This document shows, one piece after another, positions 7,492 through 23,670 of a stretch of DNA of 44,787 bases. The notes under the pieces were generated by a model. That model was not told where the DNA came from. It worked only from the letters and a program-made list of their open reading frames with translations, and did no database searches. How positions within the stretch are numbered: position 1 is the stretch's first letter; every line of letters begins with the position of its first letter. Location of the stretch: the NCBI GenBank assembly GCA_036149055.1, contig JAYZQJ010000160.1, positions 1 to 44,787 of the forward strand, read 5' to 3'. This stretch comes from Myxococcota bacterium (GTDB lineage: Bacteria; Myxococcota_A; Polyangia; Polyangiales; Sandaracinaceae). Both the position numbers and the translations under genes were made by a program.

Positions 7492-7538
7492 GGCGCGGCC
7501 AAGGTAGCTCGCTTGGCCCGCCAGCGCTCATCTCGACG

Positions 7539-9728
7539 TCACACGGCGGATCGGTCCGCCCGTGCCTCACGGACGCGCTGGGAGACGGCGTCCACGAGCG
7601 TCTGCCGGTCGAAAGGCTTCTGGAGCACCCTCAGCTGATGACGGTGAATGTACTGACCGACCTCGCTGCCGAGAACCCCCCCCGTCATGAAGAGCATTCG
7701 CTGGGCGAGCCCCTCGTCCCGCTCGCGGAGCCAGGCGTGCAGGTCCGTCCCGCCGACGATCGGCATCATCACGTCGCAGAGGATGACGTCGAAGCCACCG
7801 TCCTGCTCCAGCACGCGCTGCGCCTCGGCCCCGGATCCCGCGGTGACGACCGCGTGCAACTCTCCCAGCAGCCGGCCGACGATCTTCAGGATCGCCGCCT
7901 CGTCATCGACCACCAGGACCTTTCCTCGGGCCGCGCGGCTGCTGCGTTGGGCCGACCTCGCGCGCTTCTTCGCCGGCGGCTCCCCATACGCGGGGAGGGC
8001 GATCTGCACCCGCGTCCCCTCGCCGACCTCGCTCTCGATGTCGATCGAGCCGCCGTGAGACTCGACGATGTCTCGGCAGATCGTCAGCCCGAGGCCCGTG
8101 CCAGACCCTCGGGGACGAGTCGAGAAGAAGGGCTCGAAGGCGCGCGTGAGGTGTGCCTGCGAGATCCCCGCTCCGTCGTCGCAGACCTCGGCGAACACCC
8201 GGTCGTCTTCATACCAGGTCCGAATCCGGATCAAGTGGTCCTGGACCGCGCCGGGCTCGATCGAGCGCGCCGCGTTGATGAGGAGATTGAGGAAGACCTG
8301 GGACAGCTGGCCCTCCGAGCCGAGCACGGTCGGCGTCGACTCCAGGCTCTGGATCAGCCGCGCTCGGTGACGAACCTCGTTGCAGCTCATCTCCACGGCG
8401 CTGCCGATGGCGTTGGAGAGGTCAACGGCGGCAGGCGCCTCGTCGTCCACGCGCGCGAAGGTGCCGAGGGCGAGCGAGATGTTCCGGATCCGCTGGGTCG
8501 CGTCTCGGCAGGCTCGCGCTTGCTCGCACAGCTCCTTCAGGGGTGCCGCTTCCAGTTGCGCGTGGTCCGCGCCGAGCCGCTCTCGTGCTCCCTCCTCTCC
8601 GAGGGCACGGCCGAGCTCGTAGAGCGCCGCTCGCGCCGCCTCGGCGACTCGCGGCAGCGCGTCGTCGAGGCTCTCGATGAGCATGAGCAGGTAGGTCAGC
8701 GGGTTGTTGATCTCGTGGGCGACGCTGGCCGCCAGCATCCCCATGCTCGCGATCCGGTCCTCTTGAGCCAGGGTCGCCCGCTCCGCGTCGAGGGTCGTCT
8801 GATCACGGACCGCCATGAGGAGGGCGGGCTCGCCCCCGATCTCGACCGGGCTGACCGCCACGCTCGCGTGGAACGGCGTGCCGTCGAGCCGCTGGAGCGT
8901 CCAGGCGTACAGCCAGGCGCCCTCGTGCAGGGATGGTGCGGTCGGATCGGAGCGATGCGCTCTCGTGGGCGCGGCGTCGTGATCCCAGAGGGTCAACGAG
9001 GCGAGCTCCTCGGCGCGCCCCGCGCCGAACAGCGCCAGGGCGGCCGCGTTGCCCTCGCGGACTCGCCATTCCGGGGGCCGCAGGATGAGCAAGGCGTCAC
9101 TCGAGTGTTGATAGAGCGCGCGGAACCGCTCCTCGCTCCGCTCGAGCGCGGCTCGGTACTTCCTCTGCTCGTCGACGTCGGTCACCGCGATCCGGAGGTG
9201 CTCGCTGCCCGGAGGCTCCACGACGTCGAGCCGAGCCCAGAAGGTCTCGCGCTCCGCGTCGACGAGGCGCAGCTCGCACCGCTGTGGGCTCCTGTCCCGG
9301 AGGAGACGCCGTCGGCACAGGTACCACGCGTCCTGATCCTCGGCCGCGACCAGGCGGGTGAAGGGGCGCCCGATCAGCGCGTGCGAGGGGAGCCCGAGCC
9401 GGTCTTGGGCCGTCGCGTTGACCGCCCGCATCCGCCCATCGGAGTCCACGCAGACGTAGCCGATGGGCGCACGGTCGAACAGATCGGCGTACCGAGCGCG
9501 GGCCCGCTCGTGGGCGTGCTCGGAGCGGCGCAGGCCCTCGTTCTGCAGCTCCAGCTCGATCTGATGCACCCGGAGCTCGCGTAGCAGGCGCTTCGCCAGC
9601 TGGGGTGACAGCTCGCCTTCGGCCTCTGGGTGGATGCTGGCCTGCGCGGCGGCGATCTCCTCTGCGCGCGACCGCAGCGCCACGGTGCCTTGCCACGGGG
9701 GGGGGCGTCCAGGCCCTCCCCTCCTCAT
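7539..9728 (-). CDS. PAS-PAS hybrid sensor histidine kinase/receiver (HK1)
   Basis: RELRVHQIELELQNE coil, two PAS domains, H-box AHEINNPL, N-box QVFLNLLINAA, DDGAG, GSGTGLGL, receiver VVDDE...CDVMMP...QKPF. ATGA overlap with the CheBR stop. Confidence 0.93.
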   Translation of the reverse strand: MRRGGPGRPPPWQGTVALRSRAEEIAAAQASIHPEAEGELSPQLAKRLLRELRVHQIELELQNEGLRRSEHAHERARARYADLFDRAPIGYVCVDSDGRMRAVNATAQDRLGLPSHALIGRPFTRLVAAEDQDAWYLCRRRLLRDRSPQRCELRLVDAERETFWARLDVVEPPGSEHLRIAVTDVDEQRKYRAALERSEERFRALYQHSSDALLILRPPEWRVREGNAAALALFGAGRAEELASLTLWDHDAAPTRAHRSDPTAPSLHEGAWLYAWTLQRLDGTPFHASVAVSPVEIGGEPALLMAVRDQTTLDAERATLAQEDRIASMGMLAASVAHEINNPLTYLLMLIESLDDALPRVAEAARAALYELGRALGEEGARERLGADHAQLEAAPLKELCEQARACRDATQRIRNISLALGTFARVDDEAPAAVDLSNAIGSAVEMSCNEVRHRARLIQSLESTPTVLGSEGQLSQVFLNLLINAARSIEPGAVQDHLIRIRTWYEDDRVFAEVCDDGAGISQAHLTRAFEPFFSTRPRGSGTGLGLTICRDIVESHGGSIDIESEVGEGTRVQIALPAYGEPPAKKRARSAQRSSRAARGKVLVVDDEAAILKIVGRLLGELHAVVTAGSGAEAQRVLEQDGGFDVILCDVMMPIVGGTDLHAWLRERDEGLAQRMLFMTGGVLGSEVGQYIHRHQLRVLQKPFDRQTLVDAVSQRVREARADRSAV

Positions 9729-12628
9729 TCGTCGCCCCCATCCCCCGCCCCCCCCAAACGACGCTCGGTCGTTGAGATACCGTACACCCCTCGGCCGTCC
9801 TCGGCCAACGCGGTAGCCGAGAGGCTGACCTCGACGACGGAACCATCTCTGCGCAATCGCGTCGCCCGGAATGGGGCGAGGGGAGAGGACTGCGTCGAGC
9901 TCATCATTCGTGTCAGCTCGGTTTGCCAATTGCCGTTCGGGATCATGTCGCGGATGTGCATCCCCACGGCCTCCTCCTCGGTCCACCCGTACAGACGCTC
10001 GGCTCCAGGGTTCCAGGCTTCGATGCGCCCCTCCAGGCCCAGCACCAGCACCGCGTCGTGGGCGTCTCGGAGCACCGCCGCCAGCCTGCGAAGCGCCTCC
10101 GATTCACGCATCATCTCTCGCGCTGTCTTCACCTCCGTGATGTCGGTGAAGGTGATGACCGCGCCTTCGATCAGGTTCTCCAGCGTGCGGTACGGTCGGA
10201 TCCGCAGCAGGTACCATCTCTCGCTCACGCTCTGGACCTCGACCTCCTTCGGCACGAGCGTCTCGAGCACGCCCCGCGTGTCCTCGACGAGCGAGGCGTA
10301 GTCTATGAGGTTTGATGTGATCTGGGCGATCGGGCGCCCCAGGTCGCTCTCGATCACGGGGACGATCTCGCGCACCGCGGGCGTGAAGCGCTGAATCGTG
10401 AGCGCGTGGTCGAGGAACAGGGTCCCGATGTCGGTGCCCGCGAGCAGGTTGCTGAGATCGTTGTTGGTGCGCGTCAGCTCGGTCACGTTCGCGTGCAACT
10501 CCGCGTTGACGGTGGCGAGCTCCTCGTTGACCGATTGGAGCTCCTCTTTGGACGTCTCGAGCTCCTCGTTGGTGGACTGGAGCTCTTCGTTCACCGATTG
10601 CAGCTCTTCGTTCGAGGACTGGAGCGCCTCCTGCGTCGAGCGCGCCGCCCGCTGCGTGCGTCGGATGTACTCGTCTTTGGCGGCCAGCTCCCGACGCAGG
10701 GCCGTCAGGGCGCTCCGCTCGTCCGCCTCGACGGCGACGCCTGCCTCCTTCGGCGCCGCCACGCGGGAGGTGGGCTCGAGCACGACGAGGGCCACGGGGT
10801 GCTCGTGTGACAGCTTCTCGCGCGCGACGGGCCGAGCCTCGAGGTTCATCGAGGTCGTCCGGCCGTGGGTCTCCAGCCTGAGCCCCTGGACCGAGACGGG
10901 AGCGCCCTCGTCGATGACGCGGTAGACGGCGCCCGCCAGCTCGTGCCGGAGACCTTCGTGCGCCATCTCGAACGCGTTCCGGGTCGCGCCCTCGCCCGGG
11001 GAGGGCTCGAAGTACAGGCCGGCGCGTCCGTGCAGGTACAGGATCTCGCCCTGAGCGTCCACCAGGAGCGCGACGGCGCGCCCGTGCTCGAGCAGCCCGC
11101 GTTCGGTCAGCTGTCGGGGCGATGCCTGCGGGGACTCCACCTCGGCCACCGCCGTGGGGATCCGGGCCGCGAAGCGCCGGGCGGACGACGATTGAAGGGC
11201 AGGTCGCCCACCGGCGTGGCGAGGGTGCTGCGCGTAGAGCCGTGCGCGGTGGTTGATGGTGCTGAACAGGTGATCGTGAGGCCCGATCGTCTCGGAGGGT
11301 CCGAGGAGGAGCACACCTCCCGGGTTGAGCGCGTAGTGAAACATCGGGATCACGCGCCGTTGGGAGGCGGCGTCGAGATAGATGAGCAGATTCCGGCAGC
11401 TGACGAGGTCGAGCCGGGAGAACGGCGGGTCCCGGAGCACGTCGTGCACGGAGAAGATCACCTTCTCGCGGATCTGGCTCCCGATGCGAAACGTGTCCGA
11501 CTCGGCGCGGGCCGTGAAGAACCGAGCCAGCCGAGACGTAGAGACGTCCTCGGCGATGCTGGCCGGGTACACGCCCGCGCGGGCGATGGCGACGGCGTTG
11601 GGATCGAGATCGGTCGCGAAGACCTGGTAGTCCAGCGCGACTCCCTCGGACGTGGCCCACTCGCTCAGCAAGATGGCGAGCGAGTAGGCCTCCTCCCCGG
11701 TCGAGCAGCCGGCCACCCAGGCGCGGAGAGGCGTGCCGCGGGGGAGCGCGGCCACGAGCCGCGGCAGGGCCTCCGCCCGCAGCGCCTCGAAGCAGTCGGG
11801 ATCGCGAAAGAAGCGGGTGACGCCGATGAGCATGTCGTCGAGCAACGCCTTCGCCTCGTCCTCGTCGCGCTCGAGCATCGTCAGGTAGGCGGGCAGGTTT
11901 GCGGCCGAGCGCACCGCCATTCGCCGTCGCAGCCGACGCTGTAGAGTGCTCGTCTTGTACCCCGATAGATCGTGCCCGGTCCTCTTCTCGAGCTCCGACA
12001 GGATGGCGCTCAGGAGCGACTCGTTGCTCCTCGCTCCTTCCGCCGGCAGCGCGGACCGCTCGTTCACGCGCCCGGCCAGCCCGGCCGGGGGGAGGACGTA
12101 GTCCACGTCTCCGGTGGCGATCGCGCTGCTCGGCATGCCCTGGAACTCGGCCGTGTCGGGCGCCTGCGCCATCGTCGTCCCACCCGCCGCGGCGATGGCC
12201 GAGAGTCCCGCCGTCCCGTCGCGCCCAGTGCCCGAGAGCACGACCCCGACCGCGTGGGGGCCGTGTATTCGAGCCATGGATTCGAAGAGGCTGTCGATGG
12301 GGCCGATCCCGTCTCGGCGGTCACGCTCTACCCACCTCAGGGCGTCACCCTCTACGAAGGGCGTGACCCCCGGCGGCACGACGTACACGCGCCCTGCCTG
12401 GAGGGCCTCGCCGGCGCTCGCGGCGACGACCTCGACGTGGGCTACGCGTCGCAGCAGCTCCGGCAGCAGGCTCTCGTGGTCCGGAGCCAGGTGTTGTACG
12501 ACCACGAACGCGTGCGCGGAGGCCGCCTCCGGGCTGAGCGCGGCGAAGAAAGCCTCGAGGGCCACGAGCCCGCCGGCTGACGCCCCGACGCCCACCACGC
12601 CATGCTCGCGTCGATCGGGTGTAGACAT
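9725..12628 (-). CDS. CheB methylesterase-CheR methyltransferase fusion with coiled coil and PAS domains
   Basis: CheB triad GASAGG / VQHL / SGTGRDG. CheR motifs [32 protein letters not shown]. EELQSxNEEL repeats and C-terminal PAS domains. Confidence 0.95.
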
Positions 12629-12684
12629 GTCGCGAGCCTACGCCTTGCCGCGCCTCCGCGTCGGTGCAATCCCGGCGGGCCGGA

Positions 12685-14883
12685 TCAAGCGGGCGTCTCA
12701 GGTCGCGAGGTGCGGACGATGCACGAGATGCAGTCGGTCAAGGTCGCGCGGTCCAACGGCCTCTGCAGCACGGTCAGAGCGTTCTGTCGGATATAGCCGC
12801 CGGCGTCACCAACGAAGAGTCCGCCGGTCATGAAGAGCATTCGCCGAGCCAGGTCTGGACGGCGAGCCTTCACCCACGCGTGAAGCGCGGTCCCACCCAC
12901 GATTGGCATCAACAGGTCGCAGAGGATGGCGTCGAAGGAGGCGTCGCGCTCGAGAATGCCCATGGCCTCGATGGCCCCGGCCGCCGTGACGACGTCCTGA
13001 TGCGCCTCCAGCAGCCGACGGACGCCGGCGAGGATCACGGGCTCGTCGTCCACCACCAGGATCCGGCCCCGACTCGACGCCCGGTTGCCAGAGGGGGCCT
13101 GGGACGACATCGGCGGGATGCGCTCGTGGGCCGGGAAGCTCAGCCGCACCCGTGTTCCCCGCCCGCGCTCGCTCTCCAAGGAGATGCTGCCCCCGTGTTC
13201 CTCGACGATGTCTCGGCAGAGGGGGAGACCGAGGCCGGTGCCCGCGCCTGGGGGGCGGGTCGAGAAGAAGGGCTCGAAGGCACGGGAGAGGTGCTCCGGG
13301 GCGATTCCGCAGCCGTCGTCACGGACCTCCGCCTGCACCCGTCCCCCGTGCATCCAGGTGCGGACCGAGACGTGATGTGCCTCGACGTCGCCCGACGGGA
13401 ACGACTGCGCCGCGTTGACCAACAGGTTCAGGAAGAGTTGAGCGAGCAGCCCCTCGGAGCCCAGCACGCACGACGTGGCCCCGAGATCCTGACTGAGCCG
13501 CGCGCGGAGCTGTAGCTCACCGCTGCTCATCGCGACCGCGCTGGACACCGCGCGAGCGAGGTCGACGGGCTCTCTCGGGCCATCGGTGCGCGCGAACGCC
13601 CCCAGCGCCAGGATCACACGGCCGATGCGCAGCGCCGCGTCGAGGCATCCCTCCGCCTGGCCGCCGAGCTCGGAGAAGCGCTCGTGTGACAGCTGGTCGA
13701 ACGCGGCGGAGAGTCTCTGTCGCGCCCCCGTCTCACCGAGCGCTCCTACCAACTCCCCGACCGCCGCCCTCGCCGACACCTCGACGCTGGGCAGTCCTTC
13801 CGAGAGCTGCTCGGCGAGCATGGTGAGGTACGTGAGGGGGTTGCCGATCTGGTGGGCCACGCTGGCCGCCAGCATGCCCATGTTGTCGACTCGGTCCTGG
13901 CGAGCGCGGCTCGCGCGTGCGGCCTCGAGGTCGGTCTCGTCGCGCACTCCGACCAGCAGCGCCGGCCCGCCGTCGATTTCGAGCGGGCTCGCGATCAGGC
14001 CCGCTCGAAACCGCGATCCGTCCAGGCGGCGGAGCGCCCAGGCGTATCGGCACGCAGCTTCGGCGGTCTCCATCGTGGGGGAGCGCGGTGGCGACCGGGG
14101 CGGCGCGTCGGCGTCGTGGTCCCACAACGCGAGTGACGAGAGTGCGGCGACGTCTGGCGCGCCGAACAGGCGGAGCGCGGCAGGGTTGGCCAAGGTCACC
14201 CTCCAGTCCGGTGGCTGAAGGACGAGGAGCGCGTCCGCGGAGCCCTCGAAGAGGGCGCGAAAGCGAGCCTCGCTCTGGTGCAATCGAGCTTGCTCGCGTC
14301 GATGCTCTCGGATGTCGGTCACCCCCACGCGGACGCGAATCTCGGACTCTCCAACCTGCTCCGCGACATCCAGGCGGACCCAGACGGGTTCGCCCTTCAC
14401 GTCGAGCAAGCGCAGCTCGCACCGCTGCGGAGCTCGATCGCGGCGCAGGCGATGGCGACACTCCAGCCACCGACACTGGTCGCTGGGCGCAACGAGGCGT
14501 GTGATGTGAGTGTTCGGTAGCCGCGACGCCTGGAGGCCCAGCACGGCACTCACCGCGGCGTTGGCCTCGACGATCGCGTCGCTCTCGTCGAGACACAGAT
14601 AACCGATCGGCGCCTCGTCGAAGATCTGAGCGTAGCGCTCCCCAGCGCGGGCCTCGGCCCGACCCACGCGCCGCAGGTGTTCGTTCTGCAACTGCAGCTC
14701 GATCTGGTGCACTCGCAACTCTCGGATGAGGTCACGGGCGGCCGAGAGCGGAAGCTCGTCTGTGTTCTCGGGGTGCAGTTTGGATTGCGATGAGGCGATC
14801 TCTTCCGCGCGTGTTCGCAGCGACGGAGAGCCGTCCCACCGCGGCGCGATCCACGTTCGAGCGTCTTCAGCTGCGTTCCCCAT
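12685..14883 (-). CDS. PAS-PAS hybrid histidine kinase paralog (HK2) with degenerate motifs
   Basis: Collinear with HK1 throughout, but H-box is AHQIGNPL and receiver end is LQRPL. Start is ATG 14883 (GTG 14928 possible). Confidence 0.9.
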   Translation of the reverse strand: MGNAAEDARTWIAPRWDGSPSLRTRAEEIASSQSKLHPENTDELPLSAARDLIRELRVHQIELQLQNEHLRRVGRAEARAGERYAQIFDEAPIGYLCLDESDAIVEANAAVSAVLGLQASRLPNTHITRLVAPSDQCRWLECRHRLRRDRAPQRCELRLLDVKGEPVWVRLDVAEQVGESEIRVRVGVTDIREHRREQARLHQSEARFRALFEGSADALLVLQPPDWRVTLANPAALRLFGAPDVAALSSLALWDHDADAPPRSPPRSPTMETAEAACRYAWALRRLDGSRFRAGLIASPLEIDGGPALLVGVRDETDLEAARASRARQDRVDNMGMLAASVAHQIGNPLTYLTMLAEQLSEGLPSVEVSARAAVGELVGALGETGARQRLSAAFDQLSHERFSELGGQAEGCLDAALRIGRVILALGAFARTDGPREPVDLARAVSSAVAMSSGELQLRARLSQDLGATSCVLGSEGLLAQLFLNLLVNAAQSFPSGDVEAHHVSVRTWMHGGRVQAEVRDDGCGIAPEHLSRAFEPFFSTRPPGAGTGLGLPLCRDIVEEHGGSISLESERGRGTRVRLSFPAHERIPPMSSQAPSGNRASSRGRILVVDDEPVILAGVRRLLEAHQDVVTAAGAIEAMGILERDASFDAILCDLLMPIVGGTALHAWVKARRPDLARRMLFMTGGLFVGDAGGYIRQNALTVLQRPLDRATLTDCISCIVRTSRPETPA

Positions 14884-14962
14884 CTCGCGCCCCCGTCCGC
14901 GACCCCAGGTCGCTGAATCACTGTACACATCATCAGGGCCGAAAGCTCACCCACGTCGCCCA

Positions 14963-17900
14963 TCAGAGCGCGGGGGGGAACGAGGTGGGCGTGGTGATCG
15001 GGGTGGTGATCGCGGGGTCGAGGAGGTCGTAGGCGGGGCCGGTCGCGTCGACGGAGGCCTGGAGGGTGAGGGGCTCGAGGTGGGTCGCCGCCGGGCACCA
15101 GACGATCAGGATCTCGACCGGGGTCGCCCCGCCCGCGCCGGTGAACTGGACCTGGTTCGGGGTGGCGTCGGCGTTGAAGAAGTCCTGCACCTCGAGGAAG
15201 AGGTCCTCGGTGCGCATGCTGCCCACGGCGCTGCCCGCGAAGACCCAGAGCCCGGAGTCGTTCACGTCGTCGTCGGTCTCGCGCATCCAGAAGCCCTCGG
15301 TGTGGGTGAGGGTGCCGGTGTAGCGGACGACGAAGTCGAACTGGTTGCTGAGCGCGGTGCCGCCGAGGCGGTCGAAGCCGTCGACGTCGGTGACGCTCCA
15401 GGCGCCGAGCCCGCTGTCGACCCACTCCTCCACCGCCACGCCGGCCGCCAGGTCGTAGCCGGTCTGCTCGCTCATGGTGCCGCGGCCCCGCGCGAACTCC
15501 CAGATGAGGCGGCGATCGGCGTCGGTGATGTTGCTGCCGCGGCACGCCGCGTCCTCGACCGCGCCGCCCGCGGCGAAGACCCGCAGCTCCGCGGTGAGGC
15601 CGGTGGTGGGCGCCGGGATCGCGCCCTCGGTGAAGGTCTCGGTCGCGCCGCTCTCGTCGGTGATGCGCAGCTCGCGCGGGGCGCCGTCGACGACCTCGAA
15701 GGTCCAGGTGTCGCGCTGGCCGTTGAGCTCGGGCGGGGTCTCCCAGCCGGACGGGATCATGACCACGCTCTCCACCGTCTCGCCGTCGCGCTCGACGCTG
15801 AACGACCGGAAGATGCGGCGCCGGCCCGGGCCCCAGGGGTTTCGGATCTCGGCCCACTCGAGGGTGGTGGCGTCGAAGCGGAGCTCGTAGGCGCGCTCGA
15901 CGAGGGCGCCGGCCTCCGAGCGGGTCTGCAGGCCGCTCCAGACCGAGGTGCCGAGGGCGTCGAGGAGGGCGCGGCGCGGGTCCGGGCCTGCGTCGGGCGC
16001 CTCTCCCGCGTCGCCGGCGTCGACCGGGTCGACCACGCCGGAGTCGCCGGGCCCGGCGTCCGCTTCGTCGCCGGCGTCCATCGGGACCCCCGAGTCGTCG
16101 AAGCTCACCTCGCCGTCGCAGCCGACGAGGAGGAGCAGCGCCGCGAGCCAGCGGGCGCTCGCGGATCGGGGAGGTCGTCGCCGCCTCCGGGCGCCGAGCA
16201 CGAGGAGCGCGAGGGCGAGGAGGGCGAGCGGGGCGGGGGAGGATCGGCCGGGGACGGCGCAGCCGCAGCCCCCCTCGTCGCCGCCGGGGCCGCCGCCCGG
16301 GCCCGCGTCTCCCGGGGCGCCGCCGTCGCCACCGCCGGGGCCGCCGTCGGGGAGCGGGGGCGGCTCGGGGAGGCCGGGCACGGTGAGGCGACGGCAGGAG
16401 GCGTCGCCGCTCGCGTACTCCGGCGGGTAGGCGCGCGAGAGCGAGCCGTGCGGGTCCGCCATCAGGTCCTCGAGGCCGACGAGCCGGCAGTTGGGCACGC
16501 TCGGCGCGCCGAAGAGCTCGAGGTCTCCGTCGTGGCACTCGACCGGCGCGTCCCCGTCGATGCTCGCCATGTGAAAGGTCTCGCCGTCGTGCACGCTGAG
16601 GAGCGGCCCGATGCCCGTGCCCTCGGGGAAGACCGCCGCCTGCAGGTAGTCGCAGAGCCCGAGCTGGGTCCACTCCATCGTGTAGGAGGCGTCGAAGCTC
16701 GCCGCGCCCGCGCCGATCGGGTCACCCGAGAGCAGGACCTGGTGGTTCGCGAAGGTCGCCGCGGTGATGTTGAACGAGTACGACCAGAGGCCGGACTCGG
16801 GCAGGAACTCGAGCGCGTGGCCGCCGAGCGTGGCCGGGGCGCTCTCGTCGAGGCGCATCTCCAGGCGGTCGGAGAAGCTGTCCCGGCCGACCCGATACTC
16901 GCGCGCGAGGTCGACGATGTAGGTCTCCGCGGTCTCGCGCACCCGCTCGGTCAGGACCTCGCGCACCTCGCGGAGCAGCGGGCCGAGCAACCTCGCGAGC
17001 GCGTCGGGGATGCTGATCGAGACGCCGAAGCGGTCGAAGAAGTCGCTGAGGTTCTGGTACCAGACCGGCGTGACCGCGCGGCCGAGCAGCTCGTAGTCGA
17101 CGCTGGTGGTGCGGGTCGCCCAGTCGTCCAGCGGGGCGAAGATGGCGGCGACGTCGCTGGGCATCACGTCGAAGCCGTGGTCGGCGTCGTCGGTGATCGG
17201 CGCGTTGAGCTGGGCCGAGAGGTTGCCGATGACCTGCATCAGCGCCGGGAGGAAGAGGTTGAGGTCGTCGCCGAGCCGATCGCTGATCGCGTCGAACGCG
17301 CTCGGCAGCTCCCGGCCGCCCGCGTCGGTCCGCGGCGCGAGCAGGTTCACGTAGACGTAGTAGCGGCCGAAGAGCGTCGGGCAGCTGCCGCTGCAGGCGG
17401 TCTCGTCGTCGGGCGTGCCCACCACGCCGTCGTCGCCCGCGGTCACCCCCAGCTCGGCGCCGCGGGTCGAGCTCGGGTCGGCCATGTCGGCGATCTCGGC
17501 CTCGATGAAGGCGCGCAGCTCCACCCGCAGGCGCTGGATCTCCGCGAGGTACACCGGCGTCATCGCCACGTGCTCCCAGGACGCGAAGCCCGCGGCCCCG
17601 GCCCAGCTCAGCAGGTTGCCGTCCGGGGAGGCCGCGCGCGCCGCCTCCCAGCGGATCACCGCGTCCTGGGCGAGCCGCTGCCAGAGGGGGCTGTCCACGT
17701 CGTAGTAGGCGCGGAGCACGAAGCTCTCCGGGATCGTGTGGCGGAGCGAGGCCTCGTCGAACGCGCTCGGGTCGCTCTGGCGCACCGCGTCCTGGATCCG
17801 GCTCTCGGTGACGATGTGCCCGACCACGTTCTCGAACGACGACAGGCGCCGCGCGCTGCGGGGCGTGAGCGTGAAGGTCTCGCCGGTCTCGTGGTTGACG

Positions 17901-18304
17901 AAGTGGTGGGCCACCGCGTCGGTCGCGCCGTGCAGGAAGCAGCCGAGCGCGTAGGCCCGCTCCGGCTCGGTGATCGCCTCCTGGTAGAGCAGCTCGCACT
18001 GCCCGTAGGGGTCCTGATGCACCCCGTGGCTCGCGTCGGTCATCCCGGGGAAGACGGTGTTGTCGGGCCCGATCGCGCCGGCGCGGAAGGCGAGCGGCTG
18101 GTTGACGATCGCCTCGGCGTCCTCCTCCGGGAGGCGCACCACCGCGCCGCTCCAGCGCAGGGTGAGGGTGCCGTCGCCGCTGGCGATGAGGCCCTCGCGG
18201 ATCTCGTTCGCCATCACGATGTGCACGCGCGTCGTGTAGGCGGAGGCGGCGCTCGGCAGCGCGAGCAGCGCGAGGCAAGCGGTCCAGAAGCGAAGGGAGG
18301 TCAT
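14963..18304 (-). CDS. secreted Zn-dependent phospholipase C-like protein with internal MYXO-CTERM, fused to a second lipoprotein-like module
   Basis: Signal peptide ..SAASA|YTTRVH, then GAIGPD, GCFLHGATDAVAH, GHIVTE (PLC/P1-nuclease Zn ligands). Internal GGCGCAV..LALLALALLVLGARRRRR, then RWLAALLLLVG-C. PA14-like FVVRYTG..DDD near the end. Confidence 0.8.
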   Translation of the reverse strand: MTSLRFWTACLALLALPSAASAYTTRVHIVMANEIREGLIASGDGTLTLRWSGAVVRLPEEDAEAIVNQPLAFRAGAIGPDNTVFPGMTDASHGVHQDPYGQCELLYQEAITEPERAYALGCFLHGATDAVAHHFVNHETGETFTLTPRSARRLSSFENVVGHIVTESRIQDAVRQSDPSAFDEASLRHTIPESFVLRAYYDVDSPLWQRLAQDAVIRWEAARAASPDGNLLSWAGAAGFASWEHVAMTPVYLAEIQRLRVELRAFIEAEIADMADPSSTRGAELGVTAGDDGVVGTPDDETACSGSCPTLFGRYYVYVNLLAPRTDAGGRELPSAFDAISDRLGDDLNLFLPALMQVIGNLSAQLNAPITDDADHGFDVMPSDVAAIFAPLDDWATRTTSVDYELLGRAVTPVWYQNLSDFFDRFGVSISIPDALARLLGPLLREVREVLTERVRETAETYIVDLAREYRVGRDSFSDRLEMRLDESAPATLGGHALEFLPESGLWSYSFNITAATFANHQVLLSGDPIGAGAASFDASYTMEWTQLGLCDYLQAAVFPEGTGIGPLLSVHDGETFHMASIDGDAPVECHDGDLELFGAPSVPNCRLVGLEDLMADPHGSLSRAYPPEYASGDASCRRLTVPGLPEPPPLPDGGPGGGDGGAPGDAGPGGGPGGDEGGCGCAVPGRSSPAPLALLALALLVLGARRRRRPPRSASARWLAALLLLVGCDGEVSFDDSGVPMDAGDEADAGPGDSGVVDPVDAGDAGEAPDAGPDPRRALLDALGTSVWSGLQTRSEAGALVERAYELRFDATTLEWAEIRNPWGPGRRRIFRSFSVERDGETVESVVMIPSGWETPPELNGQRDTWTFEVVDGAPRELRITDESGATETFTEGAIPAPTTGLTAELRVFAAGGAVEDAACRGSNITDADRRLIWEFARGRGTMSEQTGYDLAAGVAVEEWVDSGLGAWSVTDVDGFDRLGGTALSNQFDFVVRYTGTLTHTEGFWMRETDDDVNDSGLWVFAGSAVGSMRTEDLFLEVQDFFNADATPNQVQFTGAGGATPVEILIVWCPAATHLEPLTLQASVDATGPAYDLLDPAITTPITTPTSFPPAL

Positions 18305-18341
18305 GCCCCCCATCAAACCCGAGGACGGGCGCGGAGGCAAT

Positions 18342-19331
18342 TCACGCGAAGAGCGCGCTGAGCACCTGCATCTGCGCGTGGAGCGCCTGCTCCTTGTGGC
18401 CGAGCAGATACATCTGCGAGAGCAGCGGCGAGGCGTTGATCTCGATGAACGCGGCGCGGGCCGGGTCGGCCTCGAGGCCCTCGAGCTTCAGGTCGACGCC
18501 GAAGTGCCGCAGGCCCACCGCCTCGCCGGCCCGGGCGCACACCTGCCGCAGCCCCTCGGGGATGCGCTCGACGATGCGGGCGGTGCTCGCGCCGTTGAGG
18601 TTCTGGATCGGCCCGTCGAACGACAGCGCCGCGCCCTCGGGGGGCACGCTGGTCATCGTCCAGCCGCGGCGCTCGACCGTCTGGCGGAAGCGGCGGTCGC
18701 GGGTCAGGCGGCGGAGGCGCTCGGCGTCGGCGAACCGGGGATCGCGCGCCGCGAGCAGCTGGCCGAGGCTGCGCTTTCCGTCGCCGCGCACCTCGATCGG
18801 GCGCCGCTCGTAGCCGACGAGGAAGCGGCCATCGAGGAAGTCGAGCCGGAAGTCCCGCCCGTCGATGCGCTCCTGCACCAGCGCGATCGCGTCGAGCTGC
18901 CAGGCGGCCCGGACGGCGCGGCGCAGGGTGCCCTCGTCGTCGGCGAGCGTCACCCCGCGGCCGTGGCTCAGGCGGTTGGGCTTGACCACCACCGGGTAGC
19001 CGAGCTCCTTCGCGAACGCGACGCCCGGCGTCATGCCCGCGCGGTCCCGGTAGGACGCCATCGACGGGTGCTCGCGGGAGAGGCAGCGCGTGGTCCGGGG
19101 CGTGCGAAGGTCGGCGCGCTCCAGGAGCATGCCGGTGTAGTGCTTGTCCTCCGCCAGCCGGGCCGCCACCGCGTCGTTGAGCGGCGAGCGCCCCCCGAGC
19201 ATCGCCTGCCGCCGCTCCCCTTTTCGGAGCTCGAAGAGGTACCCGTACTCCGGATCGAGCACCGACGCCTCGAGGCCCAGCCGCTTGGCGGCCTCGAGAC
19301 AGAGCTGGGTGGCGGTGGGCAGCGTCGACAA
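18342..19331 (-). CDS. stand-alone ATP-grasp ligase (cyanophycin-synthetase/RimK-like)
   Basis: LAEDK, YPVVVKPNRLSHGRGV, LVQERIDGRDFR, FGVDL, IEINASP. Confidence 0.85.
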   Translation of the reverse strand: MSTLPTATQLCLEAAKRLGLEASVLDPEYGYLFELRKGERRQAMLGGRSPLNDAVAARLAEDKHYTGMLLERADLRTPRTTRCLSREHPSMASYRDRAGMTPGVAFAKELGYPVVVKPNRLSHGRGVTLADDEGTLRRAVRAAWQLDAIALVQERIDGRDFRLDFLDGRFLVGYERRPIEVRGDGKRSLGQLLAARDPRFADAERLRRLTRDRRFRQTVERRGWTMTSVPPEGAALSFDGPIQNLNGASTARIVERIPEGLRQVCARAGEAVGLRHFGVDLKLEGLEADPARAAFIEINASPLLSQMYLLGHKEQALHAQMQVLSALFA

Positions 19332-19393
19332 AGCGCCGATGCATGCGTCACCCCAGCCCCGTTGGCAAGCATCGATTCGGTTACTCTCCCGGC

Positions 19394-20305
19394 ATGTCGC
19401 GAGATCGACGCGAGCGCTGGCGACGCGCGGCCCGGGAGGCCCGCCTGACCCCGGACGAAGAGGCGGCGCTGTTCGAGCACGCCATGCCGATCTTCCGGCG
19501 CCGAGGGTCGACCCCCGGCCCCGGCGGGCTGGGCGGACACCGCATCGGAGGGCGCCCGGATCTACCGCCCGAGCTCGCCTGGCCCAAGGACGGCGACGCG
19601 CACCTGACCTTCGTCGCCCAGGTGGACCTCGGCGCGCTCGAGCCGGGGTGGGTGCCGGAGCTGCCCGACGCGGGGTGGCTCTGGTTCTTCCTCGGCGTCG
19701 ACCAGCCGGCGTCCGACGTGACCCACCGGGTGCTGTTCTGGGAGGGGCGCCGGGACGCGCTCGCGCCCGCGGATCCCCCGGGGCCGCCGGTGGCCGTCGA
19801 CCGCCCGGCGTTTCGGCCGATCGTCCCGCGCTTCGAGCCCTCCTTCACCTTCGAGCGGGACGTGGAGCGCGAGCTCGGGCTCGAGGAGTTCACGCTCGAG
19901 CGCTTCGAGCCGGGAGGCACCGAGCTCGGTGGGCTGCCGGTGTGGTGGATGGCCGACGCGCGCGAAGACGCGCAGCTGTTCGCGAGCGGCCTCGGCCCGC
20001 TGCTGCACCACACGCACCAGACCCCGGCGAAGCTCCGGCGCTCGACCGAGGCCGCCCGCAAGAGCGGTGACCCGGCCCGGCTGGCGGCGGCGGAGGAGCG
20101 GGAGCGGCTCCTGGAGCGGTACCGGGCGGACGAGACCCGGCACCGGGCGGAGGCCAAGCGGTGGCGCTGCCTGCTCACCCTCGGATCAGAGCCCGCCGCC
20201 GACATGTGCTGGTGGGACGCCGGCTACCTCCACTTCCTGATCCATCAGGAGGCGCTCTGGATGCGAGACTTCCACGAGACCTACTGCTGCGTCGCCACGA
20301 GCTGA
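19394..20305 (+). CDS. DUF1963/YwqG family protein
   Basis: RIGGRPDLP..WP..LTFVAQVDL..LPDAGWLWFF...WWDAGYLHFLI...RDF. Confidence 0.85.
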   Translation: MSRDRRERWRRAAREARLTPDEEAALFEHAMPIFRRRGSTPGPGGLGGHRIGGRPDLPPELAWPKDGDAHLTFVAQVDLGALEPGWVPELPDAGWLWFFLGVDQPASDVTHRVLFWEGRRDALAPADPPGPPVAVDRPAFRPIVPRFEPSFTFERDVERELGLEEFTLERFEPGGTELGGLPVWWMADAREDAQLFASGLGPLLHHTHQTPAKLRRSTEAARKSGDPARLAAAEERERLLERYRADETRHRAEAKRWRCLLTLGSEPAADMCWWDAGYLHFLIHQEALWMRDFHETYCCVATS

Positions 20306-21859: not shown

Positions 21860-21972
21860 TGGGGTGAACCGACCTCGGGGTGGCGGCTGGAGTTGTCACC
21901 GGGGCGGGCTGGTATCCCGAGGCGGAGGCTGGCACAGTCGCTGCTCCCGAACAGCTTCGGAGTATACGCAGC

Positions 21973-23670
21973 ATGAAGCGCCTGACTTTCCTCGCCCTCT
22001 CCTTCGCCCTCGGATGCTCGGCCGCCCCCGGCCCGGGCTCGGGCAACCGCGACTCCGGCGCCCCGACCGAAGACGCCTACGTCCCGCCCCGCACCGACGC
22101 CGGGCCCGGGGACGAGTGCGGCAACGGGCTCGACGACGACATGGACGACCGCGTCGACGAGGGCTGCACCTGCTCGCGTGGCGACCGTCAGCGCTGCTGG
22201 CCCGGCGATCCGGCCCAGGCGGGCGTCGGGGCGTGCGGGTGGGGCACCCAGGACTGCGTCGCCGACATGGAATTCGGGCGATGGGACCGCTGCGTCCTCT
22301 ACGGCCGCGCCTCGGACGAGGTCTGTGACGGGGTCGACAACGACTGCGACGGAGAGCTCGACGAGGGCTGCGAGTGTCGCACCGGTGACACCGAGGACTG
22401 CTACACCGGCCCTGCCGGCACCGAGGGCGTCGGCCTCTGCGCGGCCGGCAGCCGGAGCTGCGAGGCCACCGCGGACGGATCGGCCTGGGGCAGCTGCTCG
22501 GGCGACGTGCTCCCCGCCGCCGAGGTGTGCGACGGCTCGGACGACGAGGACTGCGACGGCCGCATCGACGAGGGCTGCACCTGCGTCCCCGGCGAGAGCC
22601 GCTCCTGCTACTCCGGCCCGGCGGGCACCAGCGGCCGCGGTGAGTGCCGCGCCGGCGTGCAGCGCTGCGAGGGCGATCCCTCGACCTGGGGCAGCTGCGT
22701 GGGCGAGGTGACCCCCGGCGGCGAGGTCTGCGGCAGCGGCCGCGACGAGGACTGCGACGGCCTCGTGGACTGCGCCGACTCCGACTGCGAGACCTCGAGC
22801 GCCTGCTGCACCCCCTTCGACGAGACCCTCGCGGTCGTGCCGGCCGAGGGCGAGCTGCTCTTCGTGGTGGACCGCTCGGGCAGCATGGACTGGCCCGCCT
22901 CCTCCGGCGTGACCCGCTGGCAGGCCCTCCGCGACGCGATGGACACCGTCCTGCCGTCGCTCACCGACCTCCACATGGGCCTGCTGACCTTCCCCGAGAT
23001 GGACGGCACCTCCGAGCGCGACAACTGCATGGTGGCCGGCAGCCCCGACATCGCGATGTCGCTCGGCACCGGCAGCTCCATCTCGTCGCGCCTGGTCACG
23101 GTGGACCCCCGCGCCGGTGACACGCCGACCCCGGCCGCCTTCTCGACCGTGCAGAGCTACCTCACCGGCGCGCCGTCGACCCGCGAGCAGTTCGTGGTCC
23201 TGATGACCGACGGCCTGCCCGAGCCGAACTGCGGCGCCACCGTGCCGGCCACGGTCACCGCGATCGCGAACCTGCGCAGCTCGCTCGGCATCGACACCTT
23301 CGTGCTCGGCATCGTCGGGCCCGACAACATGGGCGACACGAGCGGCATCCCGGCGCTCCGCGACGCGCTCAACATGTTCGCCGACGCCGGCGGCCGCGCC
23401 CGCCCGGGCTCGACCCGCTACTACGAGGCGCTCGACGGCCCCGCGCTCACCCGCGCCCTCCGCGCCATCATCGCCGCCGCGACCGACTGCCACTTCGAGC
23501 TGTCGACCGCGCCCGGCCGCCCCGGCTCGGTCACCGTCCGCCAGGACGGCGCCGTCGTCCCGGCCAGCGGCTACAGCCTGAGCGGCACCCGCCTCGAGTT
23601 CACCGGCTCCTACTGCGACAACATCCAGGCCGGCCTCGTCAGCAGCATCCGCGTCTCGGATGGGTGCTGA
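21973..23670 (+). CDS. Cys-rich-repeat lipoprotein with C-terminal vWA domain (adhesin-like)
   Basis: LALSFALG-C lipobox; EVCDGxDxDCDGxxDEGC repeats; complete MIDAS (DRSGS, GDTPT, LMTDG). Confidence 0.88.
   Translation: MKRLTFLALSFALGCSAAPGPGSGNRDSGAPTEDAYVPPRTDAGPGDECGNGLDDDMDDRVDEGCTCSRGDRQRCWPGDPAQAGVGACGWGTQDCVADMEFGRWDRCVLYGRASDEVCDGVDNDCDGELDEGCECRTGDTEDCYTGPAGTEGVGLCAAGSRSCEATADGSAWGSCSGDVLPAAEVCDGSDDEDCDGRIDEGCTCVPGESRSCYSGPAGTSGRGECRAGVQRCEGDPSTWGSCVGEVTPGGEVCGSGRDEDCDGLVDCADSDCETSSACCTPFDETLAVVPAEGELLFVVDRSGSMDWPASSGVTRWQALRDAMDTVLPSLTDLHMGLLTFPEMDGTSERDNCMVAGSPDIAMSLGTGSSISSRLVTVDPRAGDTPTPAAFSTVQSYLTGAPSTREQFVVLMTDGLPEPNCGATVPATVTAIANLRSSLGIDTFVLGIVGPDNMGDTSGIPALRDALNMFADAGGRARPGSTRYYEALDGPALTRALRAIIAAATDCHFELSTAPGRPGSVTVRQDGAVVPASGYSLSGTRLEFTGSYCDNIQAGLVSSIRVSDGC

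Follow-up and report, generated by a model that had tools for sequence, protein, structure and literature searches.

The window analysed here, a stretch of 44,787 nucleotides from a Myxococcota bacterium of the Sandaracinaceae (GenBank assembly GCA_036149055.1, contig JAYZQJ010000160.1, positions 1 to 44,787 of the forward strand), contains on its minus strand a single open reading frame (ORF) of 1113 codons, in which a MYXO-CTERM sorting tag lies inside the protein and is followed directly by a lipoprotein signal. The tag, its arginine cluster and the lipoprotein signal are referred to as the hinge, and the parts before and after it as the N-half and the C-half. The ORF and its parts are as follows.

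14963..18304, minus strand: fused ORF, 1113 amino acids, starting with the ATG at 18304; full-length homologues exist.
18239..18304, minus strand: N-terminal Sec/signal peptidase I (SPase I) signal peptide, residues 1-22, ending in A-S-A; read from the sequence, cleavage predicted.
16355..18238, minus strand: N-half, residues 23-650, predicted helical Zn-dependent phospholipase C (PLC)/P1-nuclease-like enzyme, from PF00882 matches in the family, conserved columns and an AlphaFold (AF2) model.
16277..16378, minus strand: Pro/Gly/Asp low-complexity linker, seen in the sequence and unconserved in the alignment.
16175..16276, minus strand: internal MYXO-CTERM (TIGR03901), residues 677-710.
16259-16270, minus strand: GCGC motif of the MYXO-CTERM (C680, C682).
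16190-16231, minus strand: transmembrane segment of the MYXO-CTERM.
16199..16201, minus strand: in-frame GTG (V702), a candidate internal start, without a Shine-Dalgarno sequence and not conserved.
16175-16189, minus strand: cluster of five arginines (Arg5).
16118..16189, minus strand: internal lipoprotein signal, with Arg5 and a spacer as its n-region; matches the N-terminal signal of split orthologues.
16121-16150, minus strand: second hydrophobic region (h-region).
16118-16120, minus strand: C729 of the lipobox L-V-G-C.
15971..16117, minus strand: acidic/Gly tether downstream of the lipobox Cys, seen in the sequence and variable among homologues.
15620..15970, minus strand: predicted lipocalin-like beta-barrel, residues 779-895, from the AF2 model and VIA.
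14966..15619, minus strand: predicted PA14 carbohydrate-binding-like domain, residues 896-1113, from Foldseek and VIA.

TIGR03901 recognises the tag with 31.8 bits (cut-off 20), the second-best match in this genome (G000), at a distance of 403 residues from the stop, i.e. not at the C-terminus. Eight spacer residues separate Arg5 from an uncharged h-region, which ends in the lipobox (consensus [LVI][ASTVG][GAS]C), and 384 amino acids follow the lipobox Cys. Judged by a regular-expression rule, the n-region, h-region and lipobox Cys of a lipoprotein signal are all present internally, in a signal that starts at residue 706 rather than at the initiator Met; in the split orthologues described below the signal stands at the N-terminus of the translation product, whereas in the fused ORF it does not. 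A preliminary description of this DNA had reported a single uninterrupted ORF, an internal MYXO-CTERM leading into a lipobox Cys, and no ATG, GTG or TTG between the Arg cluster and the lipobox. All three hold at the positions given above; the GTG of V702, four codons upstream of the Arg cluster, had been overlooked. An alternative upstream start (TTG at 18340) is less likely than the ATG at 18304.

A sequencing or assembly error might have erased a stop and a start, and the split forms with an ATGA overlap are one frameshift away from the fused form. Against such an error, one contig in each of two independent DNA runs (X4 and X14) covers 14958-18400 with no gaps, and no indel is seen in any of the four sequencing runs compared. 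A metagenome copy (locus L111) is 99.5% identical and free of gaps, and there are more than 100 fused homologues. An assembly artefact was rejected on the strength of the gap-free X4 and X14 contigs and L111, and its probability is practically negligible. The G+C content at third codon positions is 0.90-1.00 in each 60-codon block of the ORF, hinge included. The runs containing the gene are mostly marine, and the closest named homologues of the protein are from Sandaracinaceae. The two halves are unrelated to one another and neither has a paralogue in G000.

A protein search found 131 homologues, of which 120 were listed and assigned, together with the query, to classes by rule. Tag, Arg cluster, h-region and lipobox are all present in 105 of these 121 proteins, while 11 terminate at the MYXO-CTERM tag and the other five comprise a hinge that the rule failed to catch, two collapsed junctions and two truncated or frameshifted sequences. 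Counted by locus (132, duplicates and the window included), the two halves are in a single frame at 88 and in different frames at 15, an N-half with a stop is found at 7 and a contig end interrupts 22. The fusion, whose retention in orthologues the preliminary description had proposed as a check, is thus kept, and one of the carriers of the hinge is a named isolate, Paraliomyxa miuraensis (L045).

The conserved positions within the junction are those of the two sorting motifs. Among 74 distinct fused junctions scored with a strict and a relaxed regular expression, a lipobox is present in 72 and 73 respectively, within a hypervariable linker and more often than chance would give, and in none of the 73 lipobox junctions do the final nine h-region positions include a charged residue. 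C680 and C682 are conserved at 90% or more, and both Cys motifs are retained in homologues down to about 40% identity while their flanks drift; with a mean of 3.3 Cys per 156-residue junction, there is little Cys beyond the two plus one of the motifs. A22 of the Sec signal is nearly invariant in the alignment. In fused junctions the distance from the first Arg to the lipobox Cys is 13-47 residues (median 20.5), so that in most homologues the Arg tail itself would act as the n-region, in agreement with the earlier proposal that it doubles as such.

Eleven of the 15 different-frame loci are clean two-gene loci that are split exactly at the hinge seam (L043, L047, L049, L051, L053, L059, L066, L082, L093, L103 and L151). 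Gene 1 stops at the MYXO-CTERM and gene 2 has a lipoprotein signal at its start, with Met as the first residue (Val in L059), and in six of the eleven the genes overlap by ATGA. This count leaves out L069, L102 and L110, where the frameshifts lie away from the seam, and L096, in which gene 2 has its own signal and gene 1 is frameshifted. The C-half also occurs as stand-alone lipoproteins. A stop and a separate start in relatives had earlier been named as a finding that would refute the polyprotein reading; such relatives do exist, in a minority of loci, but since 88 loci are fused they support modularity rather than an artefact.

Trees of the N-half were built with FastTree (95 rows) and with IQ-TREE under LG+G4 (29 rows). 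L151 is in neither, and L048, which ends at the tag with 160 bases remaining, is labelled split in the 95-row tree and excluded from the 29-row tree. Fused rows come from Sandaracinaceae, Nannocystaceae and Polyangiaceae, and every split row that bears a family name belongs to Polyangiaceae. Three changes between the fused and split states are needed on the tree, of which the starred branches force two, and a single split clade is rejected by the approximately unbiased test (p 5e-56). The direction of change is left unset because both trees are unrooted; the simpler interpretation is that a fused ancestor underwent fission.

In a rival reading, an in-frame internal start, such as the GTG at 16201, would make the C-half as a separate lipoprotein, with the long product as a by-product. 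Initiation at V702 would yield a good signal peptide, and 43 of 72 junctions hold an ATG, GTG or TTG between eight codons before the Arg cluster and the h-region. The positions of these codons are scattered, however, 29 of the 72 junctions have no candidate codon and a Shine-Dalgarno-like motif occurs in just one, and since there is no stop, translation of the N-half would still run through the hinge. A conserved internal start was rejected on the codon and Shine-Dalgarno counts, and internal initiation as an explanation is very improbable.

The hinge recurs within G000, where 74 TIGR03901 matches lie above the cut-off, 67 of them within 21 residues of the stop and seven internal, and all seven internal tags run into an h-region and a lipobox. 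The other six internal-hinge ORFs (L155-L160, on C14, C215, C125, C128, C227 and C187) include two peptidoglycan hydrolases fused to small lipoproteins via the hinge, an M23 peptidase with cell-wall-binding repeats and an Amidase_3 protein with a TolB-like propeller, as well as a 1376-residue protein without a Pfam match and three Cys-rich repeat proteins. Close co-oriented downstream genes follow 31 of the 67 terminal tags, and nine of these were judged by eye to be lipoprotein-like; the difference from the internal tags (7/7 against 9/31) has a Fisher p of 0.0009, or 0.005 if five families are counted. The Cys-rich family is both fused (three copies) and split (C76) within the genome, and another split pair is separated from fusion by a single in-frame stop.

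Beyond this genome, a junction profile compared with 120 other genomes of the phylum gave, by hand count among the 150 of 186 rows listed, at least 40 stop-free full-length junction matches in at least 29 genomes. Inspection of 18 loci revealed 13 lipobox hinges, one SPase I-type signal, one Tad/pilin-like helix and three stops. A family of about 1380 residues without a Pfam match (L157:2636-6763(-); P0193-P0312) accounts for seven of the 18 loci, has the hinge in 119 of the 120 homologues listed and includes Sandaracinus amylolyticus (P0233). In L185 (G113:C201) an SPase I-type signal and then a barrel-like domain come after the internal MYXO-CTERM, an arrangement similar to TraA-TraB, and in L183 (G072:C72) a TadE/G-like helix (family assigned by eye) does so, which suggests that other export signals can sit on the same MYXO-CTERM Arg tail. 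It seems rather more plausible than otherwise that Myxococcota use a general secretory-polyprotein hinge, in which the Arg tail serves as a lipoprotein n-region and one ORF gives rise to two lipid-anchored proteins. The same degree of belief extends to its scope, that is, about one in ten of the MYXO-CTERM genes of G000, at least five unrelated families, and flipping between fused and split states.

If the protein were never cut, it would sit in the inner membrane by two helices and expose two domains to the periplasm, and its motifs would be relics or no more than lipidation sites. Hairpins whose cytoplasmic loop is basic are a usual form of membrane anchor, and a clade with a collapsed junction indicates that the hinge is open to remodelling. 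In these four homologues (P0108, P0118/L100, P0141 and P0147) the Cys motif is followed by one hydrophobic segment ending in a lipobox-like Cys, by basic residues and by the C-half in frame. Relics would be expected to erode, but 73 of 74 lipoboxes persist, as do C680 and C682; in addition, the second signal is the same in all seven internal tags of G000, and fused and split states interconvert. Permanent retention of the uncut protein is therefore quite unlikely.

For the N-half, PF00882 gives 22.4 bits against the whole of this protein and 26.5 bits against the core, below the gathering score of 26.8, and at E<=0.1 it matches 34 of 35 family members (best 1.7e-8); the profile match behind the Zn-PLC-like assignment is weak but consistent across the family. 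Candidate metal ligands (H28, D81, H93, H125, D129, H133/H134, H163 and E167) are conserved. In the numbering of the mature protein, H6, D59, H103, D107, H111, H112, H141 and E145 are invariant in 35/35 sequences and H71 is conserved at 90% or more, and their role as ligands is presumed from PLC/P1 patterns rather than from a superposition. The conserved His/Asp/Glu set that starts at the mature N-terminus resembles that of the Zn-dependent PLC/P1 nuclease superfamily, whereas identity to solved PLCs is about 12% and the N-half has large helical insertions. The AF2 model of the N-half has a predicted local distance difference test (pLDDT) score of 91.5, and VIA placed the PLCs 1ah7, 1olp and 8cqm at ranks 6-8 (Z 6.5-6.7, root-mean-square deviation (rmsd) 3.8-4.6, 159-168 residues aligned from residue 1-2), matches that are suggestive only, as such Z values lie within noise for a helical model of 628 residues. 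Foldseek with the whole N-half found no match at E<=0.001, and PDB sequence searches with N-half, C-half and catalytic-core profiles found nothing credible. In PLC/P1 chemistry the metal is bound by the free N-terminal amine, which would explain why an enzyme of this kind is anchored at its C-terminus.

The C-half (AF2 model, pLDDT 93.1) is predicted to combine two beta-rich domains. In VIA the barrel matches APCDD1, TP0435 and lipocalin-like proteins with Z 8-9. Foldseek matches the C-half to PA14 domains (E 1e-6 to 1e-5, probability 1.0), and PA14 domains take VIA ranks 1-6 with Z 11-13.4, among them 5a3l (Z 13.4, rmsd 4.6, 177 aligned) and 6m8m (Z 12.8, rmsd 3.2, 164 aligned). The model thus has the predicted PA14 beta-sandwich fold, from which Ca-dependent sugar binding may be predicted. 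Pfam gave no match for the C-half, PA14 included, and an ESM Atlas search with it gave no usable match. At the position that we take to be that of the PA14 Asp-Asp motif, the family has E-D or N-D, and three remote stand-alone lipoprotein relatives of the C-half (P0179, P0185 and P0190) have an Asp-Asp pair at the apparent PA14 sugar-site position.

The ORF probably encodes a secretory polyprotein from which cleavage by myxosortase and LspA yields two envelope proteins, each with its own lipid anchor. Sec would export the N-half, and SPase I would free Tyr23 as the predicted metal-binding N-terminus. The MYXO-CTERM helix would act as a stop-transfer sequence, leaving Arg5 in the cytoplasm, and the second h-region would restart export, so that both halves face the periplasm. 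The Cys of the GCGC motif would be lipidated and myxosortase would cut after Cys, as proposed for ordinary MYXO-CTERM proteins, and the N-half would then pass to the surface by way of type II secretion (T2SS). Lgt would modify C729 and LspA would cut before it, yielding a lipoprotein made up of the lipocalin barrel and the PA14 domain, and the hairpin peptide would be discarded. G000 has a myxosortase core of 131.6 bits (cut-off 100) and encodes two LspA, six Lgt loci and two GspD (T2SS). The six Lgt-family loci and two tandem LspA genes are on C7, C40, C206, C19, C210 and C74, and among the additional Lgt paralogues may be the enzyme responsible for lipidation of the MYXO-CTERM Cys. The preliminary description had envisaged a transmembrane hairpin and release of two proteins from one translation product, a proposal supported by the conserved fusion, the Arg tail as n-region, the same products in split orthologues, the lack of a conserved internal start and the presence of genes for all the processing enzymes. 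As to function, it can be speculated that a surface phospho-esterase and a lipid- or glycan-binding partner are co-produced from one message.

Several observations count against processing into two lipoproteins. The h-regions at internal sites have a lower hydrophobicity than those of free signals (mean Kyte-Doolittle 1.92 against 2.31, n=73 and 20, p 5e-4, with kin that are not independent), and no report of Lgt or LspA acting on a lipobox behind another transmembrane helix was found in the literature searched. Two-helix topology fails to explain the four collapsed-junction homologues. L039 and L109 have the N-half alone, with no C-half within about 6 kb, so that the two halves need not be paired 1:1. 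In run X17, RNA contigs, which cannot show expression or transcript structure, cover both halves and not the hinge. Lipidation of the MYXO-CTERM Cys is itself a proposal, according to the available text of PMC11980579.

The hydrophobicity difference and the silence of the literature on LspA cleavage of an internal lipobox would also suit a single cut, in which myxosortase frees the N-half and the C-half stays in the inner membrane on the uncut hairpin, possibly with Cys729 lipidated by Lgt and uncut by LspA, or in which only LspA cuts. Models for mid-protein tags likewise name the cut at the sorting tag alone in the available text of PMC11980579 and PMC7157517. Both Cys motifs are nevertheless kept to about 40% identity while their flanks drift, and both pathways have ordinary substrates in the split orthologues, which makes a single cut unlikely.

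Cleavage by the myxosortase MrtX requires the Cys of the tag and also takes place in E. coli (Guo, Haft & Wall, mBio 2025, PMC11980579, available text). The same text calls internal tags rare and gives as its example, without experiment, MXAN_5598 of Myxococcus xanthus, where the internal MYXO-CTERM is ascribed to gene fusion and N-part processing with surface anchoring is proposed. The idea is therefore less unique than the preliminary description had implied. MXAN_5598 differs in its C-part, an outer-membrane barrel with an OmpA domain in place of lipocalin/PA14, and no second signal, lipobox or LspA step is mentioned for it in that text; by its description, its architecture is similar to that of L185 with the SPase I-type second signal. 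HVO_0405 of Haloferax volcanii is a fusion of two genes with a tripartite tag in mid-protein, at which a sorting protease cuts, as seen by Western blot (PMC7157517, available text); it involves archaeosortase and PGF-CTERM in a strain-specific fusion rather than a conserved family, and a second export or lipidation signal is not described there.

With canonical MYXO-CTERM/myxosortase systems (TIGR03901, NF040914) the ORF shares the Cys motif, transmembrane helix, Arg cluster, signal peptide and a genomic myxosortase. Closeness to the C-terminus is a MYXO-CTERM signature in the available text of bioRxiv 10.1101/2023.06.07.544157, from which this tag departs by its 403 residues. Sec/signal peptidase II lipoproteins have the same basic n-region, uncharged h-region, lipobox and polar tether, differing in the position of the signal. 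A bacterial precursor with an internal signal is the Bradyrhizobium fbcH cytochrome b-c1 polyprotein. Both fbcH and the NCBIfam family 'midcut-by-XrtH' (NF033207, known here only as the name of a sub-threshold match) have one internal cut, a different enzyme and no tandem lipidation signals. A search of mainly open-access literature yielded no publication on an internal lipobox or on a polyprotein of this sort; nothing on the hinge came from a term search of two Haft preprints, nor from the available text of PMC6372800 and PMC4158809. Within that literature the internal lipobox is an unreported element of known sorting systems, and the internal MYXO-CTERM/lipobox feature is real, conserved and recurrent.

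The neighbourhood is not conserved across the family, and the window's neighbours appear in 0 of the 15 largest neighbour clusters; the best among the real neighbours are Ser/Thr kinases of a generic kind, at 19 loci, and a gene limited to one clade, at 12 loci. An ATP-grasp ligase with a cyanophycin synthetase/GshAB-like C-domain (18342-19331, minus strand) lies immediately upstream in the same orientation; it is kept in a same-genus genome and not family-wide. On the other side, 7535-14957 forms a 7.4-kb block that comprises a CheB/CheR-PAS fusion together with two PAS histidine kinases that resemble each other. Strain L111, which is 99.5% identical, has about 0.9 kb of different DNA in place of the block, and runs X4 and X14 diverge from the window at 14958; the block is likely a strain-specific island right after the stop of the fused ORF. 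A DUF1963 gene (19381-20287; region 19343-20305, plus strand) is absent from strain L111, and the product of 21880-23670 (plus strand) is predicted to be a lipoprotein that has Cys-rich repeats together with a vWA domain.

Textbook lipoprotein biogenesis presumes an N-terminal signal, a rule that a conserved internal lipobox would break. If the proposed processing is correct, Lgt and LspA process a lipobox hundreds of residues inside a polytopic precursor, many of the proteins annotated as MYXO-CTERM would each in fact be two, and the annotation of hundreds of myxobacterial proteins would change. Bacteria would then use polyproteins in the style of eukaryotes and viruses as a recurring strategy for their envelope proteins and not just as a curiosity.

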